From: Pseudomonadota bacterium
GTDB lineage: Bacteria > Bdellovibrionota > Bdellovibrionia > Bdellovibrionales > SG-bin7
Direction: 5' to 3'
NCBI GenBank assembly: GCA_034439715.1
Contig: JAWXAY010000010.1
Coordinates: forward strand, 1 to 64,000
Length of the DNA: 64,000 nucleotides
The position numbers and the translations under genes were made by a program. Of the stretch, positions 31,787 through 63,248 are shown in pieces. The notes beneath the pieces were generated by a model. That model saw only the letters and a list, made by a program, of their open reading frames with translations, was not told the DNA's origin and did not search any database. The stretch's first letter is position 1. Every line of letters begins with the position of its first letter.

Positions 31787-31820
31787 TCTGATTTAACTGA
31801 CGATTAGGTAACTTTAACAA

Positions 31821-31847
31821 AAGCCCGCTCTCAAGCGGGCTTTTTCT
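31821..31847 (+). terminator. Rho-independent terminator
   Basis: AAGCCCGCT-CTCAA-GCGGGCTT hairpin followed by TTTTT, 35 bp after the porin stop. Confidence 0.8.
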
Positions 31848-31883: not shown

Positions 31884-32891
31884 ATGACCGAACAAGCCCT
31901 ACTTGCCCATCTAAAATCCAATCCCTATGTGTTGGCTCCCATGGCCGGGATCACAGATTGTGCCTTTCGTACTTTTATGAAAGAGATGGGGGCTGGTATT
32001 GTAATTACAGAACTAGTGTCTGCAATGGGACTTAAGTACTGCAGCACCAAAACCAAAATGTTGATGGCCTTTGATGAAGTTCAGCGTCCTTTCGGCATTC
32101 AACTTTTTGGCGAAACACCTGAAATTTTGGCTGAGGCCGCTAAAGAGTCCCAAGACTTTGGTGCTGATTTTATTGATCTCAATTTTGGCTGTCCGGTTGC
32201 TAAGGTCGTGCGAAAGGGGGCGGGTGCTGCTGTTTTGCGTGACTTGATAACCCTCAGAAATATATTGAGAACTGTAAAACAAGCCATCCAAATTCCACTC
32301 ACAATAAAAGTTCGTACAGGTTGGGATAATGAAACTCGAAATGCCGATGAAGTCGTGCGCCTGGCGCATGACGAGGGCATAACCTGGGTCACCATTCACG
32401 GACGAACCCGCGCACAAGGTTATAGTGGTTTATCTGATTGGGATTATATTTCTTGGGTAAAGGCGCAAAGTCGAATACCAGTGCTGGGCAATGGTGACGT
32501 GAGTTCGGCGGGGGTTGCAAGAATGCGGCTCGACCAAAGTAAGTGTGACGGCGTAATGATCGGTCGAGGTTGTTTAAAGAACCCTTATATTTTTCATGAA
32601 GCACTAAGTGGAACACAGGTAGTTGAAAAAAACTACGCAGCCCTCAGTGAACGCCTCCAAGAGCTTTACTATAGTAATTTTCCAGAGCGATACGCCTTAA
32701 TACAGTTGCGAAAGTTTGCTATGTGGCAATCGACGGGTCTCCCAGACTCATCCAAGTTTAGAGGTGATATATTTTCAGCCACCACCAAGGAGGCCCTAAA
32801 TTCAGTGATTGAATCTTATTTCTTGCGGGTGCAAAATTTAATTAAAGAAGATACAAGTCACCAGGCTTTTTTGATGGGTGGTCATGGATAG
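31884..32891 (+). CDS. dus: tRNA-dihydrouridine synthase
   Basis: LAPMAGITD and DLNFGCP FMN/TIM-barrel motifs; ATG at 31884 chosen over the upstream TTG that overlaps the terminator. Confidence 0.8.
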   Translation: MTEQALLAHLKSNPYVLAPMAGITDCAFRTFMKEMGAGIVITELVSAMGLKYCSTKTKMLMAFDEVQRPFGIQLFGETPEILAEAAKESQDFGADFIDLNFGCPVAKVVRKGAGAAVLRDLITLRNILRTVKQAIQIPLTIKVRTGWDNETRNADEVVRLAHDEGITWVTIHGRTRAQGYSGLSDWDYISWVKAQSRIPVLGNGDVSSAGVARMRLDQSKCDGVMIGRGCLKNPYIFHEALSGTQVVEKNYAALSERLQELYYSNFPERYALIQLRKFAMWQSTGLPDSSKFRGDIFSATTKEALNSVIESYFLRVQNLIKEDTSHQAFLMGGHG

Positions 32892-33831
32892 AAAGATCGA
32901 GAAAGTCTTAGTTGAGGCCCGCGGAGTCAATAAGCACTACCCCAATTTTTGTGATTTAAAAAATATCAGTTTTAGTTTTGACGTCGGAAAGAGTTACGGA
33001 GTTCTTGGTCCGCGCAATAGCGGCGTTACGGGCCTGCTGCGTTTGATTTATTGTACGGCATTCTCAGATAAAGGTGAGGTCATGGTTTTGGGTTACAATG
33101 CCAAAAATCAACCTCGGGAGATTAAATCAATTGTTGGCGTGGTGCCGGATGCTCTCAGTCTCGAGGAAGATCTCACCGTGATAGAACAATTAACAGTTTT
33201 TGGTAAATTTTATGATCTTGCTGGCCCAGTGGTTCAAAATCGTGCGCGAGAACTCCTCCAGCAAATGGAACTTGGCGGTCTTGAGGGTTACTCCACCCGA
33301 CACCTTAGTTTGTTCCAAAGAAAAAAACTATGTTTGGCGCGGGCACTTTTACATCAGCCTCAACTTTTAGTACTTGATGAACCAACAAAGGGCCTGACCA
33401 GCAATGACAAAAAGTGGTTTTTACAGATGTTACAATTTGTTCAAAAGGCCAATATTAATTTAGTTATTGGAACATCTAATTACGGGGATGCCTTGGAACT
33501 CTGTGACTATATTTTATTTTTGCATAATGGAAGGGTCATAGAGCAGGGCGAAGCCAAATCATTGCTAACAAATATCGTAGGCACTACCGTCATAGATTTT
33601 CAAAGTCCACCCGCTGAGGTCGAGTATCAGCTAGCAAAATTTAGTAATAGTTACGAAGTCTTTATTGTTGATAACCGAGTGCGAATCTTTTTCAAGGAAG
33701 GCCAAGATATAAAAGAGGCTCTGACAAAGATTTTAAGCGACAACATTATTACCCGTAAACCTAATCTCGACGATATTTTCGTAAAACTTATTGGTCATTC
33801 GCTGGAGCAAAAGCCATGGGCGACAACCTAA
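32878..33831 (+). CDS. ABC-transporter NBD-like protein with degenerate catalytic motifs
   Basis: Walker A reads GPRNSGVTG (no Lys), signature LSLFQRKK, H-loop His replaced (TSNYGD); Walker B LLVLDEPT retained. Confidence 0.65.
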   Translation: MVMDRKIEKVLVEARGVNKHYPNFCDLKNISFSFDVGKSYGVLGPRNSGVTGLLRLIYCTAFSDKGEVMVLGYNAKNQPREIKSIVGVVPDALSLEEDLTVIEQLTVFGKFYDLAGPVVQNRARELLQQMELGGLEGYSTRHLSLFQRKKLCLARALLHQPQLLVLDEPTKGLTSNDKKWFLQMLQFVQKANINLVIGTSNYGDALELCDYILFLHNGRVIEQGEAKSLLTNIVGTTVIDFQSPPAEVEYQLAKFSNSYEVFIVDNRVRIFFKEGQDIKEALTKILSDNIITRKPNLDDIFVKLIGHSLEQKPWATT

Positions 33832-34628
33832 GGGGGCTTGCTAGAGATTTATGGTTCCTTCCAAAATTGAGGGTTGGCGCCTTCAATGTGTGGAGCCACT
33901 ACTTTCTCGTTTTTCGACAAGCGCCGCTTATTAATTTTTTTTGGGTCAGCGTTGAACCACTTGTCTATTTGTTTGCTATTGGAAATGGCGTTGGCTCTTT
34001 AGTAGCTGAAGTAAATGGAGTTTCTTATTTTGAGTTTTTCTTTCCTGGACTACTTGCCATATCTGTCATGATCACTACCAGTTACGAAACTACTTATGGC
34101 ACTTACAACCGAGCTTACTTTAGCAAAACATTTGCGAACTTATTTTTAACGCCAATTAGTTCCATGGATTTACTCTTAGGCGAGATTCTATGGGCTGTAT
34201 TTAAGGGATTGCTCAGTGCTTTAACTGTAGTGCTTGTGCTTTATGTCGACAAATATTTATCGCTGGGACAGCTTTTTTCTTTACTAGGCGCCTCAGTGCT
34301 TCTCTGCTGGTTTTTTTCTTCTCTCGGGTTATTTATTACTTCAATCGTAGGATCATCAGAATCATTTATTTATTATCAATCTGGATTTTTAATTCCTATG
34401 GCAATGCTTTGTAATACCTATTTTCCAATGACCAATTATCCAGAGACCGTACAGGCATTGATAAAAATATTACCCTTGAGCCAGGGAGTATTTTTATTTC
34501 GAGCAATAATGGAAGGTAGATTTGAATTATCATTTTACCTTGCTGTACTCTACTTTTTGATTTTGAGTTTTCTTTTTACAAATTGGTCACTACAAAGAAT
34601 GTCGAAAAAAATAGAGACGCTAGTCTAA
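33816..34628 (+). CDS. ABC-2 family transporter permease
   Basis: 6-TM ABC-2 pattern; overlaps the NBD-like gene. Confidence 0.65.
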   Translation: MGDNLRGLARDLWFLPKLRVGAFNVWSHYFLVFRQAPLINFFWVSVEPLVYLFAIGNGVGSLVAEVNGVSYFEFFFPGLLAISVMITTSYETTYGTYNRAYFSKTFANLFLTPISSMDLLLGEILWAVFKGLLSALTVVLVLYVDKYLSLGQLFSLLGASVLLCWFFSSLGLFITSIVGSSESFIYYQSGFLIPMAMLCNTYFPMTNYPETVQALIKILPLSQGVFLFRAIMEGRFELSFYLAVLYFLILSFLFTNWSLQRMSKKIETLV

Positions 34629-35608
34629 ATGAGATGATTATCTTTGCACCAACGGATGCTGTTTTCGATTGCAACATCAGCTGAACGAGCCTTAAATCCA
34701 AGTTCCCTTTTCGCTTTTTCATTTGAAAACCAATGGTAAAGTTGCGAGATCCAAGCGGTCTCACTGCTAATGGGAGCCTTTTTACCAATTTTAGCCAGTT
34801 GATCGCCAACTAGTCCCAGTAATCTCAATGCGCCATTGGGCAAAAATATTTTTGGGGGATTTACCCCAGAGGCCTTTGCTATTTTCGCAAACAAGTCTTT
34901 AATCAATATATTTTCACCAGATAAAATGTAACGCTCTCCATTTCGACCCTTTTGCCAAGCCGACCACATGGCATCTACTACATCTTCAAGCGCCACGACA
35001 TTGGCTCCTCCAGATGTATAAAATGGGAATTTCCCTTTTGCTACTTTAAGTTGGGTGCCGCGACTTCCTTTTTTTGCATCGCCGGCGCCATAAATAGTTG
35101 AGGGATTTACAATTACTGCGGCGAGACGATTTAATCTTGCGGCCCTGCGGACATACATCTCTGCGGCGTGTTTAGTATCAAAATAACCAAGATGTAAATG
35201 TCGCAAATTAAATTTGGCAGACTCATCTAAAATTATCTGAGGCGAAAAGCTGGCGCCGATTGCAGAAACACTACTGACGTGTAAAAGACGAGGGACCCTA
35301 TGCGCTATGCAGGCATCTACTATATTTTTAGTACCATGATAATTTACCTGAACCATCGTCTTACGCTCATTGGGCGTGTAGGCAACTAGACCTGCAAGAT
35401 GAAAAACCCCTTCCATATTCTTAGTGACAGAAAAAACCGACTCGCGATCTGTGATGTCGCCCAACACTGGTGTGATACCCCATTTTTGTATTTCATCAAG
35501 GTTTGATAGACTTCGAACCAGAGCAAACGTTTGGTGGTTTTCCTCGCGAAGGCGCTTGGCCATCCAGTGACCCAAAAAGCCATTTGCTCCTGTGATAAGA
35601 ATTTTCAC
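34625..35608 (-). CDS. NAD-dependent epimerase/dehydratase (extended SDR)
   Basis: N-terminal ITGANGFLG Rossmann motif. Confidence 0.7.
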   Translation of the reverse strand: MKILITGANGFLGHWMAKRLREENHQTFALVRSLSNLDEIQKWGITPVLGDITDRESVFSVTKNMEGVFHLAGLVAYTPNERKTMVQVNYHGTKNIVDACIAHRVPRLLHVSSVSAIGASFSPQIILDESAKFNLRHLHLGYFDTKHAAEMYVRRAARLNRLAAVIVNPSTIYGAGDAKKGSRGTQLKVAKGKFPFYTSGGANVVALEDVVDAMWSAWQKGRNGERYILSGENILIKDLFAKIAKASGVNPPKIFLPNGALRLLGLVGDQLAKIGKKAPISSETAWISQLYHWFSNEKAKRELGFKARSADVAIENSIRWCKDNHLI

Positions 35609-44383: not shown

Positions 44384-44551
44384 AATTTACCAGATTATTT
44401 AGACATTAGTTAAATAAGGCCATATATTTTGCCGCACCCAAATAGGCTAAAAAACAACCTATATATATTGACTTTATGTGTCGCTGGTTTTAAATCTATT
44501 CGAGTCTGGGCAATTTATCCCTATCTGAACCTAAAAGTCAAAAGGTGGTCC

Positions 44552-45004
44552 ATGAAACTAAATAGAAAGATGGAATACTCTTTGATGGCTTTAAAGCACA
44601 TGAGCCAAAAAAGTCCAGGCGAACTTACGTCAGCCAAAGAAATTTCGGATCTCTATGGTTGCCCAATTGATGCCACGGCAAAGGTCTTACAAGTGATGAC
44701 CCGCCATGACCTATTGAAGTCCGTTCAAGGTGTTCAGGGTGGGTACTTAATTCAGCGAGATCTTTCACGCCTTACATTTTTTGATTTAATTGGGATGATC
44801 CTTGGCCCGATGGGGTTTGTAAAGTGTCTGCCGGGTGGACATGCGCATTGCGAGATTCAGGATCGCTGTAATATCGTGGGTGCCATGGGTGTTCTCAATG
44901 ATAAAATAATGCAGTTTTATAAAAAGATTGCGATTAAAGACCTGCTTGAGCCGCGAAAAAATTCGACAAGTGCCCATCATTTATTAGAGGAAATTCATTC
45001 ATGA
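44552..45004 (+). CDS. Rrf2-family transcriptional regulator (IscR/SufR-like)
   Basis: [14 protein letters not shown] wHTH; Cys cluster [15 protein letters not shown]; RBS AAGGTGG; upstream of suf operon. Confidence 0.75.
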
Positions 45005-46425
45005 GTGCGAGTTCACAATCTGAATATAAACATGGCTTCGTCACAGACATTGCGCAAGATTCTTTGCCAAAAGGACTTAATGAAAATATTGTGCGTGCAC
45101 TTTCAAAAAAGAAAAAAGAGCCTGAATTTTTATTAGAGTATCGCTTAAAGGCTTATCGCTATTGGCAGACGATGAGCGAGCCCCGGTGGGCCCACGTCCA
45201 CCATGAGCCCATAAATTTTCAGGACATTTCTTACTACTCGGCGCCGCGATCGCAAAAAGATGGACCCAAGAGTCTTAATGAGCTCGATCCTGAGCTTCTT
45301 GAAACTTTTGAGAGATTGGGAATCCCTCTTTCCGAACAAAAACGAATTTCAGGAGTGGCGATAGATGTCGTTTTTGATAGCGTATCTTTGGGTACCACTC
45401 ATCAGGCGGACCTCGAAAAAGTCGGGGTCATTTTTTGCTCGTTTAGCGAAGCAGTGCAAAAGCATCCCGACCTTATCAAAAAATATTTAAGTACGGTCGT
45501 TCCGCACACAGACAACTACTATGCCGCCCTTAATTCCGCGGTTTTTTCTGACGGATCTTTTTGTTATATTCCTAAAGGACTGCGTTGCCCATTGGATCTG
45601 TCGACCTACTTTAGAATAAACGCCAAAGAAACTGGCCAATTTGAGCGGACGCTTGTTGTGGCCGACGAGGGCAGTTACGTCAACTACCTTGAGGGGTGCA
45701 CGGCACCTCAACGAGATGAAAACCAGCTGCACGCAGCCGTCGTCGAACTCGTGGCCTTAAAGGATGCCGAGATTCGATATTCAACTGTGCAGAACTGGTA
45801 TGCAGGCAATAAAGCCGGAAAAGGCGGCGTCTACAACTTTGTCACAAAACGGGGAAAGTGTTTTGAAAATGCTAAAATTTCTTGGACCCAAGTGGAGTCA
45901 GGTTCCGCGATTACCTGGAAGTACCCATCTTGTATTTTACAAGGTGACAACTCCGTGGGAGCCTTTTATTCCGTGGCTCTTACACATGATAAAATGCAAG
46001 CCGACACTGGTACTAAAATGATTCATATCGGTAAAAACACTCGCAGCACGATTCTTTCTAAGGGAATATCAACGGGCGAATCTGCCAACACCTATCGTGG
46101 ACAGGTCAAGATTATGCCGTCGGCTGATGGGGCGCGAAATTACTCACAATGTGATTCAATGCTTGTTGGGGATCGCTGCCAAGCCAATACGTTTCCGTAT
46201 ATTGAAAACAAGAACCCCACGTCGACCATTGAGCACGAGGCCACAACATCTAGAATTAGCGAAGACCAGCTTTTCTATTTGGAATCTCGAGGAATTAATA
46301 AAGAGGGCACGGTATCTCTTTTGGTAAACGGTTTTTGTCGTGATGTTTTTAAACAGTTACCACTTGAGTTCTCTGTAGAGGCCGTAAAGTTAATAGAAAT
46401 GAAATTAGAAAACAGCATCGGGTAG
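45001..46425 (+). CDS. sufB: Fe-S cluster assembly protein SufB
   Basis: 474 aa SufB pattern; operon position. Confidence 0.9.
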
Positions 46426-46433
46426 GAGAAGAG

Positions 46434-47204
46434 ATGTTAGAAGTAAAAGATCTTTGTGCAGAAGTTGAAGGCAAAAAAGTACTTAATGGCTTTAGCCTTT
46501 CAATAAAAGCTGGAGAGGTACATGCGATCATGGGCCCGAACGGTTCTGGCAAGAGTTCATTTGCAAAAGTAATTGCCGGACATCCAGCATATCGGGTGAC
46601 TCGAGGCGAGGTGAAATACGAAATCAATTTCAAAAAGAAAAACCTATTTGAACTGTCCACAGATGAGAGAGCTAAGGAGGGCGTTTTTTTGGCCTTTCAA
46701 TACCCCGTAGAAGTTCCCGGCGTACTTAATGATGTTTTTTTACATATGTCCTACAACCAAATTTGTAAACATCAAGGAACCCCCGAGTTATTATTAAACG
46801 ATTTTCAAAATCTTTTGTCTAAGAAGGCACAATGGGTAGGTTTGGACCGTTCTTTTTTTAGTCGCTCGCTCAACGTAGGATTTTCTGGCGGTGAGAAAAA
46901 GAAAAACGAAATTTTACAAATGGCCTTGCTTAATCCGCGGCTCTGTCTGTTAGACGAGACTGATTCCGGCCTTGATATAGATGCACTAAAAATTGTAGCT
47001 GGCGGGATAAATAAAGTTCGCTCAAAAAATAATGCAATAATATTGATTACGCATTACCAAAGACTTCTTAATTTTATCGAGCCCGATTATGTTCATGTTC
47101 AACATGAAGGTAGAATTATTAAATCGGGAGATAAGTCGTTGGCCTTAAGACTTGAAAACGAGGGATATGACGGAATTCTCAAAGAAGCTGGCTTGGGGAC
47201 ATAA
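46434..47204 (+). CDS. sufC: Fe-S cluster assembly ATPase SufC
   Basis: Walker A GPNGSGKSS, ABC signature FSGGEKKK. Confidence 0.9.
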   Translation: MLEVKDLCAEVEGKKVLNGFSLSIKAGEVHAIMGPNGSGKSSFAKVIAGHPAYRVTRGEVKYEINFKKKNLFELSTDERAKEGVFLAFQYPVEVPGVLNDVFLHMSYNQICKHQGTPELLLNDFQNLLSKKAQWVGLDRSFFSRSLNVGFSGGEKKKNEILQMALLNPRLCLLDETDSGLDIDALKIVAGGINKVRSKNNAIILITHYQRLLNFIEPDYVHVQHEGRIIKSGDKSLALRLENEGYDGILKEAGLGT

Positions 47205-47207
47205 GGC

Positions 47208-48470
47208 ATGGAGGCGGTTGCGGCAGCACATAAAATTTTTATGAACTCACACCGAGCGGACAGGGCGGAGGTAAACGAAATTCGCCTGCGAGGACTCGCG
47301 GAATTTATGGCCCTAGGCCCGCCCTCAAGCAAAGATGAGGATTGGAAATATACAAACCTTAAAAAATTATCAGAGCTTGTTTTGCGCTATAGTTACGCCA
47401 CAAAAGCTGTTGAGAACAATTATTTAGTAATAGAAGAGTTGCTTGAAAAAAATCGTGTTGGAAAAAACAGAGTTGTGTTTTTAAATGGTAAGGTTTTGCC
47501 CGAGCTCAGCATGTTGACAGTTAAAGACGAGTACGTTGTCAACGGGGCAATAACTACGCCTGTAGCTCCAGCAAAAAATCTACTGGCAAATCTAAATAAT
47601 GCTTTTTTAATATCGCCGCTCGAAATTAGTATTAAAAATGATGCCAAAGTTGTTGCGCCGATTTGGATCGTTAACGTTTCCTCAAACAGTGTTGTTTCAA
47701 ATACAAGTGTAGGTATAAATTTTGGTGTCAACAGCTCGGCGGAGTTGGTAGAAGCTTTTTTTAGTTTGGATGATAAACCATGCTTTGTTAACGCGTTAAC
47801 TAAAATAAATGTGAACGCGGGGGCCTCAGCAGATCATTTTATTTTTCAAGACCTCGGGAAGCAAGATGGGATTGCACATTCTCTTTTACTTATTTTGGAA
47901 CAAGATGCTACATTTGGCTCTCTCAACTTGGCTAAGAGCTATGGTTGGTCGCGGAATAGTATCTGGGCCGAACTAAAAAAGCCCGGAGCTCATGTGTCAC
48001 TGTTTGGGTTAAATCTACTTAGCGACGAGCAATTTATTGATCATTGCCTTAAGGTAATTCATGCGGCGGCTCAAACTAAAAGCAGGCAGTTGTACAAGGG
48101 TGTCCTAAGTGGAAAATCTAAGTCTATTTTTAACGGTAAAATCACCATAGACAAAGGTGCAATGGGCGCTTTGGCTGAGCAGTTGAATAAAAATATTATT
48201 TGCGATCGAAATTCTGAGGCAATCACTCGTCCTCAGTTAGAAATTAATGCCGATGATGTTAAGGCAACCCACGGTGCCACGATTGGCAAAATAAACCCCG
48301 AAGAACTTTTTTATTTGGAGAGCAGGGGTCTTTCTGCTGAACAAGCGCGACGCCTTTTAACAGAGGGTTTCGTGCGTGAGGTTTTGGATCTGGGTTTAAA
48401 ACCTCAATTGAGAATCTGGGCCCTCGATCAATTAAATATCGGCGAACTGGTAGGTAAAAATGTGGTCTGA
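47208..48470 (+). CDS. sufD: Fe-S cluster assembly protein SufD
   Basis: SufB/D family fold, operon position. Confidence 0.8.
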   Translation: MEAVAAAHKIFMNSHRADRAEVNEIRLRGLAEFMALGPPSSKDEDWKYTNLKKLSELVLRYSYATKAVENNYLVIEELLEKNRVGKNRVVFLNGKVLPELSMLTVKDEYVVNGAITTPVAPAKNLLANLNNAFLISPLEISIKNDAKVVAPIWIVNVSSNSVVSNTSVGINFGVNSSAELVEAFFSLDDKPCFVNALTKINVNAGASADHFIFQDLGKQDGIAHSLLLILEQDATFGSLNLAKSYGWSRNSIWAELKKPGAHVSLFGLNLLSDEQFIDHCLKVIHAAAQTKSRQLYKGVLSGKSKSIFNGKITIDKGAMGALAEQLNKNIICDRNSEAITRPQLEINADDVKATHGATIGKINPEELFYLESRGLSAEQARRLLTEGFVREVLDLGLKPQLRIWALDQLNIGELVGKNVV

Positions 48471-49686
48471 AAAAGAAATTAACGAGATACGGGAAATGTT
48501 TCCGGCACTGAAGCAAAAAGTGCGTGGTCAGAATTTGGTTTATCTCGACTCCGCCGCAACGGCACTCAAGCCACTAAGTGTGTCTCAGGCCATTTTTGAC
48601 TTTGATTCGGTTGAAGCTTCTAACGTGCATCGCGGGGCCCATTACTTGAGTGGAAAAGCTACCGAGCGTTTTGAGGGAACCCGAGACTTGGTTAAACAGT
48701 TTTTAAACGCAGGGTCCGCGGATGAAATTATATTTACCTCTGGTACCACGGAGGGCATCAATCTTGTGGCGAATTCTTTTGTTTCTACCTTTTGCCAGTC
48801 CGAGGATGAAATCGTAGTGACGGAGATGGAGCACCACTCGAATTTTGTGCCCTGGCAAAAAATAGCTAAAGAAAAAAATCTTAAGTTTAAGGTTATTCCG
48901 GTCAAGATGTCGGGAGAACTGGACCTCGAAATGGCTAAAAAAATCATTACCGATAAAACAAAAATAGTCGCGCTTTCCTATGTTTCAAATGTTTTGGGAA
49001 ATATAAACCCCATAAAAAAAATAATTGCACTCGCTAAAGCTAGTGGAGCAAAAACTTTAATCGATGCCGCCCAAGCGGTGCCCGCTTTTGCTATAGATGT
49101 TCAAGATCTTGACTGTGATTTTTTAGTTTTCTCGGCGCACAAACTTTATGGCCCATTTGGTGTCGGGGTTTTATACGGGAGAAAAAAAATTTTACAGGAA
49201 ATGTCTCCTTGGAAGTCGGGTGGCGGCATGATAGATAGTGTCACCTCTCAAGGAAGTACCTATGCAGATGTTCCTAATCGATTTGAGGCGGGTACGCCAA
49301 ATATTTCAGGTGTGATAGGGCTCGGTGTCGCTCTAAATTTTGTAAGAATCCTTGGCTATGCTAATATTTCGGAATATGAAGGTCAGTTGCACTCATATCT
49401 TCTTGATAGAATTAGTGACCTTAAAAGTATTAATGTTTACGGAGAGACCGAAAATAAAGTTGGCATCATTGGCTTTAATATGATTTCTGCACATGCTTCT
49501 GACGTCGGATCTATTCTCGATCAACTGGGCATAGCAGTTCGCTCGGGACATCATTGTGCACAACCGCTCATGACTCGATTTGCAGTACCGGCAATGGTTC
49601 GATGTTCGCTCGGCGTTTACAATACGACAGACGAGATAGATCGCTTCGTCCAGGGACTCAACAAGGCACAGGAGATGCTATTATGA
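48460..49686 (+). CDS. sufS: Cysteine desulfurase SufS
   Basis: PLP-dependent aminotransferase class V pattern; SGHHCAQP near C-terminus. Confidence 0.9.
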   Translation: MWSEKEINEIREMFPALKQKVRGQNLVYLDSAATALKPLSVSQAIFDFDSVEASNVHRGAHYLSGKATERFEGTRDLVKQFLNAGSADEIIFTSGTTEGINLVANSFVSTFCQSEDEIVVTEMEHHSNFVPWQKIAKEKNLKFKVIPVKMSGELDLEMAKKIITDKTKIVALSYVSNVLGNINPIKKIIALAKASGAKTLIDAAQAVPAFAIDVQDLDCDFLVFSAHKLYGPFGVGVLYGRKKILQEMSPWKSGGGMIDSVTSQGSTYADVPNRFEAGTPNISGVIGLGVALNFVRILGYANISEYEGQLHSYLLDRISDLKSINVYGETENKVGIIGFNMISAHASDVGSILDQLGIAVRSGHHCAQPLMTRFAVPAMVRCSLGVYNTTDEIDRFVQGLNKAQEMLL

Positions 49687-50246
49687 ATCCTCAAGAATTT
49701 TTAATTAGAGTTCAGCCTACGCCTAACCCCCAGGCCTTAAAATTTATTATGAATGAAGTGGTGAAGACAGAGGGTAAGGCTACATTTACTTCAGCGGTTG
49801 AGGCGAATGGAATCCAAATGGCGCGTGACATCTTTGAATTGAACACAGTAAATCAGTTACATTTCTTCGATAACTTTATAACGGTTACGTTTAATGACGG
49901 CATTTATCCCTCTGAACAAGAGGAACTCGTCATAGCGATTGTTCGCAGAGATATTTTAGTTCACGATGCTAATTTTAAGGTAGAGGCTGACCTAAAGCCC
50001 AGCCGAATTCACCTTTCCCCCGAAATACAGAAAGTCGAATCCATTCTGGACAGAACTATTCGGCCTGGCCTTCAAGGTGATGGTGGTGACATAGAAGTTA
50101 TTTCTTATAAAGACCATCATCTAGAAGTAAGGTATGAGGGGGCTTGTGGAACGTGTCCAAGTTCGACGACCGGGACTTTAATGGCCATTGAATCGATTTT
50201 GCGTGATGAGTTTGATCCGCAAATTTCGGTCACGACTGTTCTCTAA
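49683..50246 (+). CDS. NifU/Nfu-type Fe-S scaffold/carrier
   Basis: Nfu N-domain plus C-terminal CGTCPSS; ATG overlapping sufS stop (ATGA). Confidence 0.7.
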   Translation: MNPQEFLIRVQPTPNPQALKFIMNEVVKTEGKATFTSAVEANGIQMARDIFELNTVNQLHFFDNFITVTFNDGIYPSEQEELVIAIVRRDILVHDANFKVEADLKPSRIHLSPEIQKVESILDRTIRPGLQGDGGDIEVISYKDHHLEVRYEGACGTCPSSTTGTLMAIESILRDEFDPQISVTTVL

Positions 50247-54285: not shown

Positions 54286-55536
54286 ATGAAAGTTGGTCTG
54301 GAAGCAATAGCTTTTGATATTCCAAAATTTTATGTCGACATGACAGAGTTAGCGCATTACCGAAGCATTGATCCCGCTAAGTTCACTAAAGGTCTTGGCC
54401 AACTAGAAATGTCTGTGGCCTCGCCCTGTGAGGACACAGTAACTTTGGCGGCGGGTGCAGCCATTAAACTGATGCACGGCTTTAATATTGATAAAGAATC
54501 AATCGGACTTTGTGTCGTGGGCACTGAGACTCCTATAGATCAAAGTAAGCCCATAGCTTCTCACATCCACGAGATTTTAGGACTCCCTAAAAATTGTCGC
54601 GTTTTTGAAACAAAACACGCTTGTTACGGGGCGACGGCAGCCCTTGCCATGGCTACAGATTGGATTCTATCGGGACGGGCGCAGGGCAAAAAAGCAATAA
54701 TAATAGCAAGTGATATTGCTCGCTACGGGTTGAAAACTGCAGGCGAACCCACGCAAGGTGCTGGTGCCGTGGCGATGCTGATTTCAGACAACCCAAAATT
54801 GCTAGAGTTAGAAACCAATTATGTTGGTAACTACTCAGAACAGGTTATGGATTTTTGGCGACCAACATACTCTAAAGAAGCTTTTGCTGATGGTCATTTT
54901 TCAATTCAATGTTACTTAACGGCCTTAGCAGGTTCCTACGACGCCTACAGAGAAAGTTTTACGAAACAGCATGCCGATGCTCCTGAAATGCTAGCCAGTC
55001 GTTTTGCCGCTTGTTTGTATCACGTGCCGTTTGTCAAAATGGCGAATAAAGCTCACCACAAATTAATCGAACACGAAACGAAAACTAAAATAGAAAAAGA
55101 TGACCCACGCATGAATGACGTCATCAAGGACTTTAATGAGCGGGTGGCTGGTAATTTAAATCTCAACGCCAGGATTGGAAATGTATATACTGGCTCTCTG
55201 TATCTTTCGCTTTTTAACTTCCTGGAACAGAATAGCGCCAAAAACGTGGGCCGCGCGATTAGTCTATTTAGTTATGGCAGCGGCTGCACCTCAGAATTTT
55301 TTAGCGGAATTGTACAGCCCGGCGCAGAATTAGCTTTACAAAAAGTTTCGTCGCAGTCGGCATTGAATTCCCGCATTCGCATTCCCGTTGATCATTATGA
55401 AAAAATGTTGAATGCATCGGCCGAATCCGACCAAAATAATGTCGAGGTTTCTGATCCTAAAACTTGGCATATTACAGGTCCGGTACTTTATTTAGGAAAT
55501 AAAGACCACAAACGACAGTATGCCGTTAATCAGTGA
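54286..55536 (+). CDS. mvaS: Hydroxymethylglutaryl-CoA synthase
   Basis: N-terminal EAIAFDIPKFYVDM, catalytic Cys region (ETKHACYGATAAL), 416 aa. Confidence 0.8.
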   Translation: MKVGLEAIAFDIPKFYVDMTELAHYRSIDPAKFTKGLGQLEMSVASPCEDTVTLAAGAAIKLMHGFNIDKESIGLCVVGTETPIDQSKPIASHIHEILGLPKNCRVFETKHACYGATAALAMATDWILSGRAQGKKAIIIASDIARYGLKTAGEPTQGAGAVAMLISDNPKLLELETNYVGNYSEQVMDFWRPTYSKEAFADGHFSIQCYLTALAGSYDAYRESFTKQHADAPEMLASRFAACLYHVPFVKMANKAHHKLIEHETKTKIEKDDPRMNDVIKDFNERVAGNLNLNARIGNVYTGSLYLSLFNFLEQNSAKNVGRAISLFSYGSGCTSEFFSGIVQPGAELALQKVSSQSALNSRIRIPVDHYEKMLNASAESDQNNVEVSDPKTWHITGPVLYLGNKDHKRQYAVNQ

Positions 55537-56344
55537 ACCGACCTAATACCGGCGATAAGAGCAATAATATTACCGGTATTGAGGCAAATAAAACCACAAT
55601 AAACGCACCTGCGGGCAGATCCCAGATGTGACTTAGGGTCATACCAATAAAGCTTAAAGCAAATCCTAGAGCCCATCCAAAAAAAAGGCGAGCACGAATA
55701 CTATTAAAAAACAAGGTTCCCACGACAGCGGGTACAATTAAATAAGCGAATACCTGCAGTACTCCGGCGACGCTCACAGAGGACGTAATGACTACGCCGA
55801 ATAATACATAAAATAGAAAGTCCCAATACCCCGTCTTTTCTGTTTTTTTGCCAAATGAGGCCGCAATGAGTTGTCTTCTAAAAACAAAATGAATACCAGC
55901 AACGATGCTATAAATGATTCCAGTTTTTATGACGTCAAACCAAGTTACCCACAATACCTGACCTACTAGTAGATCTTTAATGTGCTCTGCTCCATGCGCA
56001 ATGCGGTCAACGACAAGAACTACAGCAGCAGAAGCTAACGCATAGACGATGCCGATGATTGCTTCTTGTGAAAATAATTTTTCGTGACGTCTTGCCAATG
56101 CAAAAAGGCCGGCGACGGCGAATGTGCTAAATAGAGAAATAAAATAGGTCCCAGCCGAATTGTGTTCAAAGCCAAATAATATCGCGATCGTGGCTCCAAA
56201 AGCAGCTACTTGCGCTAGACTGAGATCCACAAAAATCACCCCACGTGCCAGCACATGTAATCCCAAATAACAATGAATTCCGGCCAAGATTAGACACATC
56301 ACAAACGGTGCAGCTAGAAATGTTAGGGCGTTCACCAGCTCCAT
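55526..56344 (-). CDS. Metal (Zn/Mn) ABC transporter permease, ZnuB/MntB family
   Basis: ABC-3 permease pattern, 272 aa. Confidence 0.75.
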   Translation of the reverse strand: MELVNALTFLAAPFVMCLILAGIHCYLGLHVLARGVIFVDLSLAQVAAFGATIAILFGFEHNSAGTYFISLFSTFAVAGLFALARRHEKLFSQEAIIGIVYALASAAVVLVVDRIAHGAEHIKDLLVGQVLWVTWFDVIKTGIIYSIVAGIHFVFRRQLIAASFGKKTEKTGYWDFLFYVLFGVVITSSVSVAGVLQVFAYLIVPAVVGTLFFNSIRARLFFGWALGFALSFIGMTLSHIWDLPAGAFIVVLFASIPVILLLLSPVLGRFTD

Positions 56345-56367
56345 TATTTATTCCTCTATTCATTTCT

Positions 56368-57291
56368 CTAGTTATTATTTTGATCCACAATGCCTTTTAC
56401 TAAGTTTTCGTACAAGTCGTCTATTGTAGCAATTCCCTCGGCGCCATCCACAGCGACAGGAACGGTTGCCGATCGAATCGAGGGAATTGTTTGTTTAATT
56501 TTTTCTGTCACCGTTGGGGCAAAATAATTTTCTACGAGTATCAATGAAATTTGGTCTTTCTTGATGGTATCTATTACTTTAAGAATATGTGCGCTGGTTG
56601 GAGGAATTCCCGGCTTTGGTTCTAGGATTACGGGATTTTCAATTTGAAATCGGTCTAAAAAATAAGTGAGCGTTCTGTGATAGGTGACAGCTTTTTTTAT
56701 ACCAGCCGCTTGAATTCTCTGTTGCCACTCTTTGGTTTTCTTTTGCATTCTCAATTGCAGAGCGAGCGCATTTTTTTGATACTCAGCAGTATTCGCGCTG
56801 TCAAGCTCACCTAGTCGCTCAGCAATTTTCAAGGCGATTTCACCAGTTCTGATAGGATCTAAAGTGACATGTGGATTACCAAATGGGTGTACATCACCAT
56901 CGGCTCTGCTGATTCGACCGATGGGTATTTCTAACGGTTTTACAAAGGTTCCCACCTCGAGGTAGCCTTTTTGGCCCTGATTTATTTTTGGGTTCCTCGC
57001 TCCGCGGATAAGGCTGGGTAGCCAACCCACTTCTAAATCCAGTCCAATTGCAATCAGCAGATCAGCTTTGCTTACTTTAGTCATATAAGAAGGCTTGGCT
57101 TCTATAAAGTGAGGGTCCTGCGTGCCCTTAGCAATTGAGTTTACGTTAATGAATTTTTGTCCAACTTCATTTGTGATTGCGCGTAAGTCAGTAGTGGTTG
57201 TGACTACGTTAAGTTCAGCCAGAGCGCTAACTGCTGATAAATTGAAAGTACTCAATATAACGGGAATTAAAATAGAGTTTAATAAACGCAT
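56368..57291 (-). CDS. Metal ABC transporter substrate-binding protein, ZnuA/TroA family
   Basis: Signal peptide at internal Met (MRLLNSILIP...); TroA-like pattern with His-rich segment. Confidence 0.7.
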   Translation of the reverse strand: MRLLNSILIPVILSTFNLSAVSALAELNVVTTTTDLRAITNEVGQKFINVNSIAKGTQDPHFIEAKPSYMTKVSKADLLIAIGLDLEVGWLPSLIRGARNPKINQGQKGYLEVGTFVKPLEIPIGRISRADGDVHPFGNPHVTLDPIRTGEIALKIAERLGELDSANTAEYQKNALALQLRMQKKTKEWQQRIQAAGIKKAVTYHRTLTYFLDRFQIENPVILEPKPGIPPTSAHILKVIDTIKKDQISLILVENYFAPTVTEKIKQTIPSIRSATVPVAVDGAEGIATIDDLYENLVKGIVDQNNN

Positions 57292-57304
57292 TTTGAACTC
57301 CCCA

Positions 57305-58375
57305 TTAATAGGTATGCGCTGGGTGCACACCGATACTAATGTTATACTGAAGAGCCACCACATGATCCACATTGTTTTTGCCTTGTGTGTTGATGCGATT
57401 ATACTGCATCCTGAATCCCGAAAATTCAGAGGGTAAGAATCCCAAGAGAATACTTTGCTTATTCTGAAATGGGATAACATCCGGATGAGGTAATCCCACA
57501 TACTCATATCGTAGTTGCAGCCACCAACGCTCTGCAAATTGGTATTGTATCCAAGTAGCGACCCCGCCCAATTTTTCTGTAGTCTCTGCGGTAGTGGGTT
57601 CTGTAAATCCCCTTCGATTTGCCTGTAAATATTCGGTCGACCATATTAGGGCGTGATACTTACCACCTTTTTCAGGTCTCCATTTAGAAGTCAGATCGAT
57701 GCCAAAGATAGAACTGTTTCTGTCGAGCTGGTTACGTCCTTCTGCCGCCGATAGACCAAGCTCAAGGGTTAAGTCTGAACTCAAATCCCAAAGATTTTTA
57801 ATGTGTACCAACCCACCCGAATGGCGAGATTTAGGACTATTAAAGATGGTTTCATTGCTGAGACTAAACGCCTGCAACACTATCTCCGAATACCATTTAG
57901 CAGGTATCAAAATAGCTGCTGAAACACCTGATTCATTGATGCCCTCGTCACCCAATAACGTCTGGTGAATTAATGGGGCGTCGACAAAAGGAAAAGCATG
58001 TGCGTGCAACTCATTGTGCCTTCCCAGTGCCAATTTAAATTTGCCGGCCTTTAAGATCATATGTGGTAGTGAAATCGTCTCAATAAAAACGTCTTCGGGT
58101 TCGATGACAAACCCGGGATCACCGGCTTCTTGGCCGACCGCCAATAGTACTTTAGCTTTCGTATAAGGATCGACGTCAGCCGTAAATTGTATTTCAGCTT
58201 CTTGCAGAGAAAATCCATTGTGGGGAACATCTAAGCGATCATTTGAAATGTCAGTGCCTGACAAAAATAATCCTAAAAAATTTGCGCTGATGTCAGGATT
58301 AAAGGCTTTTGTGTTTTGTGCAAGTGCGCCGAGTGGAAATGCGCAAAAAATTAAAATAGGTAACAGTTTAGTCAT
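57305..58375 (-). CDS. Outer-membrane beta-barrel protein (hypothetical)
   Basis: Signal peptide MTKLLPILIFCAFPLGALA; Gly/aromatic alternating pattern. Confidence 0.45.
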   Translation of the reverse strand: MTKLLPILIFCAFPLGALAQNTKAFNPDISANFLGLFLSGTDISNDRLDVPHNGFSLQEAEIQFTADVDPYTKAKVLLAVGQEAGDPGFVIEPEDVFIETISLPHMILKAGKFKLALGRHNELHAHAFPFVDAPLIHQTLLGDEGINESGVSAAILIPAKWYSEIVLQAFSLSNETIFNSPKSRHSGGLVHIKNLWDLSSDLTLELGLSAAEGRNQLDRNSSIFGIDLTSKWRPEKGGKYHALIWSTEYLQANRRGFTEPTTAETTEKLGGVATWIQYQFAERWWLQLRYEYVGLPHPDVIPFQNKQSILLGFLPSEFSGFRMQYNRINTQGKNNVDHVVALQYNISIGVHPAHTY

Positions 58376-62564: not shown

Positions 62565-63248
62565 ATGATTTCACTATCTCATATTTATAAGACCTATCCC
62601 GGGCCCATTCATGCACTCAGTAATTTTGATTTAAATATAGAAAAAGGGGAGTCGGTATTCATAACTGGTCCCAGTGGCTCAGGAAAAACAACTTTGTTTC
62701 GTTTGGTGTCTGGCTTTGATCGACCCAGTTCGGGAGCGATTTCTGTCGCTGGATTCAATATCAATGAACTTACTGAAAAAGAAGTTCCCTATTTTCGTAG
62801 AAATATTGGTGTCGTGTTTCAAGATTTCAGATTACTAAAAGATCGTACCGTTTTTGAAAACGTTGCATTACCTCTTGAAATCAAAGGTCAAAAATTTGTC
62901 GGTATAAAACAAAAAGTAAATGAGATGCTCGATATTGTTGGTCTCACGTTTAAGCGCGAACAACATCCGGAGCAGCTGTCGGGCGGAGAGCAGCAGCGGG
63001 TCGCTATTGCGCGCGCCCTCATTCATCAACCAGGCGTATTAATAGCGGACGAGCCGACAGGTAACTTGGACGAAGAGCTAAGTTTGGGAATAATGGAGCT
63101 GCTAGATAAGGTCAATGCTCAAGGCACCACGGTACTAATTGCCACTCACGATATGGACCTCGTCAAAAAAAAGCGGCGCCGAGTGATTCAGATTAAATCA
63201 GGTAACATTGTAAAGGACTCAAAAAATGAACCAAATGCTTTGGGCTAA
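62565..63248 (+). CDS. ftsE: Cell-division ABC ATPase FtsE
   Basis: Walker A GPSGSGKTT, signature LSGGEQQR, Walker B LIADEPTGNLD. Confidence 0.9.
   Translation: MISLSHIYKTYPGPIHALSNFDLNIEKGESVFITGPSGSGKTTLFRLVSGFDRPSSGAISVAGFNINELTEKEVPYFRRNIGVVFQDFRLLKDRTVFENVALPLEIKGQKFVGIKQKVNEMLDIVGLTFKREQHPEQLSGGEQQRVAIARALIHQPGVLIADEPTGNLDEELSLGIMELLDKVNAQGTTVLIATHDMDLVKKKRRRVIQIKSGNIVKDSKNEPNALG

Follow-up and report, generated by a model that had tools for sequence, protein, structure and literature searches.

The DNA analysed here is a stretch of 64,000 nucleotides (positions 1 to 64,000 of the forward strand of contig JAWXAY010000010.1, assembly GCA_034439715.1; hereafter the window) from a bacterium of the Bdellovibrionota (Bdellovibrionales, SG-bin7). 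It contains a three-gene unit in which dusB, encoding tRNA dihydrouridine synthase B, is followed by the gene for an ATP-binding cassette (ABC) nucleotide-binding domain (NBD) protein that has lost most of its catalytic motifs, and by the gene for a NodJ-type ABC-2 permease (Table 1). A terminator-like hairpin closes the upstream AlgE-like porin gene, so that dusB-NBD-permease is marked off as a transcription unit of its own. The dusB product matched the Pfam Dus family with 249 bits and the DusB family TIGR00737 with 307.6 bits (cutoff 293), and its start agrees with the gene call on the contigs that encode the identical NBD protein. For the NBD gene, which ends at 33831, the candidate starts were GTG at 32878 and ATG at 32884; the ATG is preferred because the resulting 8-nt overlap with the dusB stop matches every orthologue and because gene callers agree on it on four independent contigs. 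The NBD and permease genes overlap by 16 nt, and a GGAG lies 8 nt upstream of the permease ATG. A first-pass annotation of the window, made from the letters alone, had already described the NBD gene as translationally coupled to the permease gene and to dus, and the overlap with both neighbours is confirmed here.

By profile match and fold, the 315-aa protein belongs to the ABC ATPase superfamily. It matched Pfam ABC_tran (PF00005) with 66 bits (gathering cutoff 25) over profile positions 1-136 of 137, and its AlphaFold model (predicted local distance difference test score, pLDDT, 92.6) comprised a confident NBD plus a C-terminal domain. The top structural match, with a TM-score of 0.81-0.89, was PDB 4YER, the NBD of TM_1403, which was also the top match by sequence. 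The best-scoring NCBIfam family was DrrA (TIGR01188; 156 bits against a cutoff of 312), and NodI (TIGR01288) gave 132 bits against 424, so that both stay under their cutoffs. The second protein is a bona fide ABC-2 permease of the type V fold. It matched Pfam ABC2_membrane with 47.2 bits (gathering cutoff 26.9); NodJ (TIGR01291), at 133 bits, was below its cutoff of 207 yet the best-scoring family, and the structure model (pLDDT 85) matched ABCH, KpsM, NosY, TarG and Wzm.

Loss of catalytic motifs in the NBD protein

To set the motif columns, the protein was aligned, with no gaps across the motifs, against canonical NodI-like sequences and the solved NBD 4YER; the coordinates were confirmed by translation. 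Tested for six catalytic motifs, the window NBD failed in five (Walker A, Q-loop, signature, D-loop and H-loop) and kept only Walker B. The first-pass annotation had reported just such a loss of every motif except Walker B, and the alignments confirm it. Two of its details were mistaken: the Walker A Thr that it took to be lost is kept (GVT), only the Lys being replaced, and the D-loop that it took to persist has Thr in place of Asp (GLT). About 50 NodI-like NBDs adjoining related permeases in metagenomes were canonical at all six motifs, so the window pattern lies far beyond normal variation and is not due to chance. In architecture and best family matches the system is of the NodIJ/DrrAB type, but because the protein failed both the curated cutoffs and five of the six motif tests, it should not be classed among the NodI or DrrA ATPases. 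A warning is in order for annotation, as all these degenerate proteins carry the label 'ABC transporter ATP-binding protein'.

We examined whether the losses were real. The identical 315-aa protein was found on contigs from four samples (SRR6448212, SRR6448211, JGI 3300020213 and ERZ505514), the same substitutions recur in orthologues, the alignments are free of gaps at the motifs, the structure model is of high confidence, and no alternative reading register that restores the motifs was found for the window NBD. Sequencing or assembly error, or a wrong register concealing intact motifs, is thus ruled out for all practical purposes.

Table 1 Features of the dusB-NBD-permease locus and of other regions of the window
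Feature	Position	Strand	Remarks
Terminator-like hairpin	31819-31844	+	11-bp stem plus T-run; 3' end of AlgE-like porin gene
dusB, tRNA dihydrouridine synthase B, 335 aa	31884-32891	+	First of the three genes
Degenerate NodI/DrrA-type ABC nucleotide-binding protein, 315 aa	32884-33831	+	NBD core plus C-terminal NodI_C-like domain
Walker A remnant GPRNSGVTG	33007-33033	+	Canonical GPNGAGKTT; Lys to Val, Thr kept
Q-loop remnant VVPDAL	33139-33156	+	Canonical VVPQED; Gln to Asp
Signature remnant LSLFQRKK	33304-33327	+	Canonical LSGGMKRR; LSGG to LSLF
Walker B and D-loop LLVLDEPTKGLT	33364-33399	+	Canonical LLILDEPTTGLD; LLVLDE intact; D-loop GLT, Asp to Thr
H-loop remnant GTSNYG	33469-33486	+	Canonical TTHYME; His to Asn
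C-terminal domain	33589-33807	+	Among the best-conserved parts within the degenerate clade (EVEY, RKPNLDD); followed by clade-specific tail with conserved Trp
NodJ-type ABC-2 (type V) permease, 270 aa	33816-34628	+
HpnA-like NAD-dependent epimerase/3-beta-HSD family short-chain dehydrogenase/reductase	34625-35608	-	Convergent to permease
suf iron-sulfur cluster operon	44429-50246	+	Rrf2-like regulator, SufB, SufC, SufD, SufS, NifU-like protein
SufC	46434-47204		Canonical NBD
CheR methyltransferase-receiver-CheB methylesterase fusion, 630 aa	52186-54078	+
HMG-CoA synthase	54286-55536	+
ABC-3 permease	55526-56344	-	Pair with ZnuA-like protein spans 55526-57537
ZnuA-like binding protein	56368-57537	-
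Protein with C-terminal HNH endonuclease domain, 317 aa	58786-59739	-
FtsE	62565-63248		Canonical NBD

A small clade shares the degenerate NBD and its gene order

Relatives were sought among 5.8 billion proteins by a word-indexed search and among 1.84 billion representatives with a full HMMER profile. Close relatives are few: the profile search returned two representatives above 550 bits and the next below 300. With loci from genomes and metagenomes, a clade of about 13 members was assembled. Taxon labels among the relatives are Bdellovibrionales, Pseudobdellovibrionaceae, Oligoflexia and Bdellovibrionota, and the clade occurs only in uncultured organisms. Three subclades are told apart by the P-loop, which reads GPR[NH]SGVT in subclade A (the window protein, P0002 and P0003), GPRWSGKS, with Walker A intact, in subclade B (P0004/L011), and GG[KR]xSG[VI][FY] in subclade C (P0005, L012, L024, L029, L030, P0307, P0310 and P0315-17). 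Every member has lost the Q-loop Gln, the signature, the D-loop Asp and the H-loop His and has kept the Walker B Asp-Glu (D165-E166 in the window protein); the D-loop reads GLT, GLS, GLV or GLN in place of (S/G)LD. Every member also has the order dusB-NBD-permease-(SDR), where SDR is a convergent short-chain dehydrogenase/reductase gene, with the same overlaps. Long invariant motifs (SYETTHGTYNRAHF and SESFIYYQAGFLIPMA) mark the permease, which is highly conserved among the clade members.

Selection acts on the NBD gene

Between the window NBD and its closest orthologue, L010, the proportion of nonsynonymous differences (pN) was 0.084 and that of synonymous differences (pS) 0.707; the Nei-Gojobori (NG86) dN/dS was about 0.04, with dS saturated. 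The same comparison for the adjoining dusB gave a dN/dS of 0.06, so that the NBD gene resembles this housekeeping gene in its divergence. The NBD open reading frame (ORF) is intact in about 13 lineages at 43-84% identity, without stops or frameshifts. Because the ORFs are intact in these lineages and pN is far below pS, the window NBD gene is not a pseudogene but is under purifying selection.

Divergence along the locus was compared between a pair from the clade and a canonical pair. Window and L012, both of the clade, share 64% amino-acid identity in Dus, 43% in the NBD, 45% in the permease and 61% in the SDR, whereas the canonical L021 and L036 share 59, 56, 51 and 59%, respectively, the NBD of the canonical pair being about as conserved as its neighbours. 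This raises the alternative that the system is a relic in slow decay, in which the transporter function has been lost and both genes drift towards loss, kept only through their embedding in the dusB operon. The NBD and permease of the clade have diverged 15-20 points beyond the flanking genes, unlike those of canonical pairs, and the decay of motifs is progressive, as a relic would lead one to expect; yet pN stays far below pS at saturated synonymous divergence, no stop or frameshift has appeared in any of the lineages, the coupling by overlapping starts and stops has been maintained, the long permease motifs are highly conserved, and many clade-specific invariant residues have been gained. 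We consider a decaying relic improbable; constraint on the NBD-permease system appears to have been relaxed or shifted, not lost.

Conservation has moved away from the ATP site

To see where constraint lies, the protein was divided into seven regions, and conservation was scored as the fraction of sequences with the commonest residue, averaged per segment. In the clade, the segments of the ATP site ranked within the bottom three of the seven regions (P-loop, 0.72; Walker B/D-loop, 0.66), and the helical subdomain, the N-terminal sheet and the C-terminal domain each reached 0.79. The pattern is inverted in the canonical relatives, in which the ATP-site segments were the most conserved (0.83 and 0.88, respectively) and the same three regions scored 0.64, 0.59 and 0.45. 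Residues that are invariant specifically in the clade have been gained at W178, H214, Q126-Q127, EVEY 245-248 and a Trp of the C-terminal tail.

These scores bear on a second alternative, a ligand-sensing or regulatory NBD, in which the remodelled pocket would bind, but not hydrolyse, a nucleotide or some other phosphorylated ligand and so gate or regulate the permease, as in SUR or CFTR. All clade members share the Walker B Asp-Glu and the P-loop Ser-Gly, GKS is kept in subclade B, and the Walker A Lys is present in 37 of 40 distant signature-less relatives, which suggests that nucleotide binding long outlived hydrolysis. Nevertheless, subclades A and C no longer have the Lys, B and most of C lack the A-loop aromatic (KLLHSD, KQNAND), and conservation of the protein within the clade is among its lowest in the pocket segments. 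A basic amino acid at position 44 of the P-loop (GPR, GGK) could have made up for the lost Lys, but it is no general feature, being absent in P0307 (GGSHSG), L030 (GAPHSG) and P0316 (GAPSSG). A special meaning for the kept Walker B is likewise weakened, since many other signature-less lineages have lost theirs, and two adjacent invariant residues are unremarkable where the mean share of the commonest residue is about 75% across the clade. Taken together, we regard a sensing role as rather unlikely.

Orthologues at the locus grade from canonical to fully degenerate

The locus is conserved throughout the Bdellovibrionota, with dusB-bipA-NBD-permease-(mtgA)-(SDR) as the probable ancestral arrangement. 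Fully canonical NBDs occur in ancestral-type arrangements in L021, L034 and L036, and also in L032, L044 and L023. Between these and the window clade stand three intermediates. In the bipA-linked L109/P0313, Walker A, Gln, Walker B and D-loop are kept, the signature reads LDLFLKRK and His is replaced by Glu; L027/P0141 keeps the same four motifs, with LSSEI as signature and Gln for His; and in the dus-linked L025/P0139, the signature is LSLGM and both His and Gln are lost, with Walker A and B kept. With the gene order dus-NBD-permease-SDR-cNMP-MotAB-PPIase-TolB-TonB (cNMP, cyclic nucleoside monophosphate; PPIase, peptidyl-prolyl isomerase), L027 shows full synteny with the window. About 40 more single-NBD representatives without a signature came from the profile search, a set that is enriched in such matches by a profile built from degenerate sequences and of which few were placed by taxonomy or context; these are the relatives of which 37 of 40 have the Walker A Lys. 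Because positional orthologues grade from canonical, through signature- and His-less with Walker A, to fully dead, the window clade is the endpoint of a stepwise decay of the ATP site. The order of loss that best fits this series is signature and H-loop first, then Q- and D-loops, and finally the Walker A Lys.

A permease tree, built by neighbour joining with 60 bootstraps and independent of the NBD motifs, recovered the window clade as monophyletic in 60/60 replicates and placed subclade A as sister to B+C in 58/60. Since only B keeps GKS, the Walker A Lys was lost twice, independently in subclades A and C, as expected of a site no longer under selection. Monophyly of all degenerate systems was found in 0/60 bootstraps of this tree, in which the deep nodes are weak; the signature may have been lost once or several times. 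In the canonical L021, L034 and L036, the gene bipA (typA) separates dusB from the NBD gene, and it is missing at this place from the degenerate dus-adjacent loci (the window, L027 and L025); its absence and the loss of the signature are not strictly linked, because L109 has lost the signature with bipA present.

A partner ATPase is not evident

ATP sites of ABC proteins are composite, with Walker A, Walker B, Q- and H-loops coming from one NBD and the signature and D-loop from the other (PMC7756269). The window NBD has lost residues that it would supply in cis (the Walker A Lys, the Gln and the His) as well as those for the site in trans (the signature and the D-loop Asp), and consequently no dimer that contains it, whether homo- or heterodimer, has a consensus site. 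The operon comprises one NBD gene and one permease gene, and no second NBD was found in the operon at any of the about 13 orthologous loci. Within the 64-kb window, the only other NBDs are SufC and FtsE; both are canonical and have partners of their own. A system that combines a degenerate with a consensus site is expected to show complementary losses between two NBDs, and such a pattern was seen neither at the window locus nor at the orthologous loci.

The first-pass annotation had offered two options, a pseudo-ATPase or a non-hydrolysing subunit that must pair with an ATPase encoded elsewhere. The former is supported by the motif losses, the intact orthologues and the low pN relative to pS; of the latter, the non-hydrolysing character stands, whereas the pairing does not fit a protein in which the contributions to both composite sites are defective. 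Such a heteromer would hold the dead NBD in one position and a canonical NodI-like ATPase in the other, powering transport. One-degenerate-site ABC systems are indeed common (PMC7756269), tandem asymmetric NBD proteins were retrieved by the profile, the genome does split ABC components, as in the ZnuA/ABC-3 permease pair without an adjoining NBD gene, and the census reaches the window only, so that the rest of the genome may hold a partner. Known asymmetric systems, however, degenerate complementarily and not totally. Moreover, a single permease gene leads one to expect a symmetric dimer of transmembrane domains, no orthologous locus has a second NBD in the operon, and the gene is a positional orthologue of a canonical NBD, not a paralogue. 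Since the window NBD spoils both composite sites, an energising partner is unlikely.

Two further observations concern NBDs in general. The ZnuA-like binding protein and ABC-3 permease of the window are encoded without an adjoining NBD gene, and, as the window holds no NBD besides SufC, FtsE and the dead one, the ATPase of this importer must be encoded elsewhere. Among the profile matches, hundreds of tandem-NBD YbhF/RbbA-like proteins (P0150-P0284) show very regular complementary degeneration: NBD1 has LSGGM with Ser, Thr or Pro replacing His, and NBD2 has LP(L/G)GxKQR, including LPLGxKQR, with His kept. The top matches of 494-500 aa (P0006-P0014), considered as fused partners, proved to be ordinary proteins of this tandem type with one degenerate site.

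Neighbouring genes

The stops of the SDR and permease genes overlap by 4 nt. The SDR scored 222 bits against HpnA (TIGR03466), under the cutoff. In nearly all Bdellovibrionota loci an HpnA-like SDR gene runs convergently towards that of the permease, a conserved neighbour across the phylum, and in some loci (L021, L109) it is joined by genes for a monofunctional transglycosylase (mtgA) and a PAP2 phosphatase. From this company one may guess that the transporter belongs to a context of envelope lipids or glycans; as to its substrate, the envelope-related neighbours are only a hint, and any functional tie between SDR and transporter is hypothetical.

Elsewhere in the window, the suf operon was assigned from ORF translations, SufC alone being checked against the NBD query. 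The CheR-receiver-CheB fusion is conserved in the related metagenome-assembled loci L011 and L012, the HNH endonuclease protein may be part of a mobile element, and the HMG-CoA synthase gene points to a mevalonate pathway.

Discussion

Our data suggest that the window NBD is a pseudo-ATPase, non-hydrolysing, conserved and under selection. We give a probability of about one half to the reading that it serves the NodJ-type permease as a non-catalytic, structural subunit and that their complex no longer depends on hydrolysing ATP. The protein would keep its fold, the helical subdomain facing the membrane subunit and the C-terminal dimerising or regulatory domain, but would no longer form the catalytic ATP sandwich, and it probably does not bind ATP. 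An NBD homodimer would most likely sit under a homodimer of the co-translated permease; the observations that bear on an association of the two proteins are their gene overlap and co-conservation. Its role may lie in assembling, stabilising or setting the conformation of the permease. The complex, which is presumably still functional, would then not be powered by ATP hydrolysis in its NBD subunit, and it could let an envelope-related substrate pass, by facilitation or with energy from another source, or have a role in the membrane other than transport. More broadly, and as a tentative proposal short of an even chance, a lineage of type V (ABC-2) transporters may have given up ATP, its NBD becoming a selected pseudo-enzyme scaffold under a permease that still works, by ATP-independent passage or in a non-transport role, with the Bdellovibrionota orthologues preserving the whole path.

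Several points weigh against a structural, ATP-free subunit. No clade member departs from the Walker B Asp-Glu or the P-loop Ser46-Gly47, and subclade B has GxxxxGKS intact, so that residual ligand binding by the NBD is possible. Within the clade, divergence is greater in the NBD and permease than in the genes beside them, whereas the NBD of the canonical pair is about as conserved as the genes around it; this excess is in keeping with a relaxed constraint on the system as a whole and may reflect slow decay instead of a new role. The evidence for an NBD-permease complex and for the loss of nucleotide binding is in both cases indirect. Finally, the census of NBDs spans the 64-kb window and the orthologous loci, and a partner encoded elsewhere in the genome is possible.

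The closest named systems are NodI/NodJ (YadG/YadH-type; TIGR01288/TIGR01291), which likewise form a two-gene NBD-permease operon, with an NBD of about 305-315 aa carrying a C-terminal NodI_C-type domain and a permease of about 260-270 aa with six transmembrane segments. NodI is the best-scoring named NBD family after DrrA and NodJ the best for the permease, and the canonical positional orthologues look like ordinary members. The window proteins differ in scoring far under the cutoffs and in having the Walker A Lys, Gln, signature, D-loop Asp and His all replaced, and nothing ties their system to Nod factors. DrrA/DrrB (TIGR01188), Rv1218c/Rv1217c (PDB 8K1N) and the TM_1403 NBD (PDB 4YER) share the architecture of an NBD plus C-terminal domain; DrrA-type proteins, however, have canonical motifs (compare the 4YER alignment), and the window NBD stays under the DrrA cutoff.

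ABC proteins with one degenerate site (TM287/288, TmrAB, BmrCD, ABCG5/G8, Pdr5 and CFTR, as well as the tandem YbhF/RbbA-like NBDs) resemble the window NBD in that motifs are replaced and the NBD fold is kept, and in them the degenerate part takes a structural or regulatory role (PMC7756269). They differ in that one consensus site is always kept, one NBD losing the Walker B Glu or the His and the other the signature; in the window system, a single NBD gene has lost the cis as well as the trans contributions, and both sites of a homodimer are dead. In the full-text literature, the coverage of which was incomplete, and in PMC7756269, only one-degenerate-site systems were found, with no homodimeric fully degenerate NBD and no account of the Bdellovibrionota locus.

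Other proteins show what an ABC architecture can do beyond ATP-driven pumping, a feature that SUR and CFTR would share with the window system. In SUR and CFTR, which are full-length eukaryotic proteins of type IV, the ABC scaffold acts as a regulator or a channel, and ATP is bound at both sites and hydrolysed at one. In SbmA/BacA-type transporters, an ABC-like transmembrane fold works without any NBD; they set a precedent for an ATP-free ABC-type membrane domain, but belong to another fold class of transmembrane domains and lack the NBD altogether rather than keeping it as a pseudo-enzyme.

ABC transporters are defined by the ATP-driven dimerisation of their NBDs. If our reading is true, an ABC-2 permease with its NBD scaffold is useful without the ATP cycle. 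Known degenerate cases keep one working site, and the window system, with its sole NBD dead in both sites, would differ from them in kind. The graded orthologues, from canonical through signature-less with Walker A to fully dead, would then be natural constructs with which the needs of NBD assembly may be separated from those of energy coupling.

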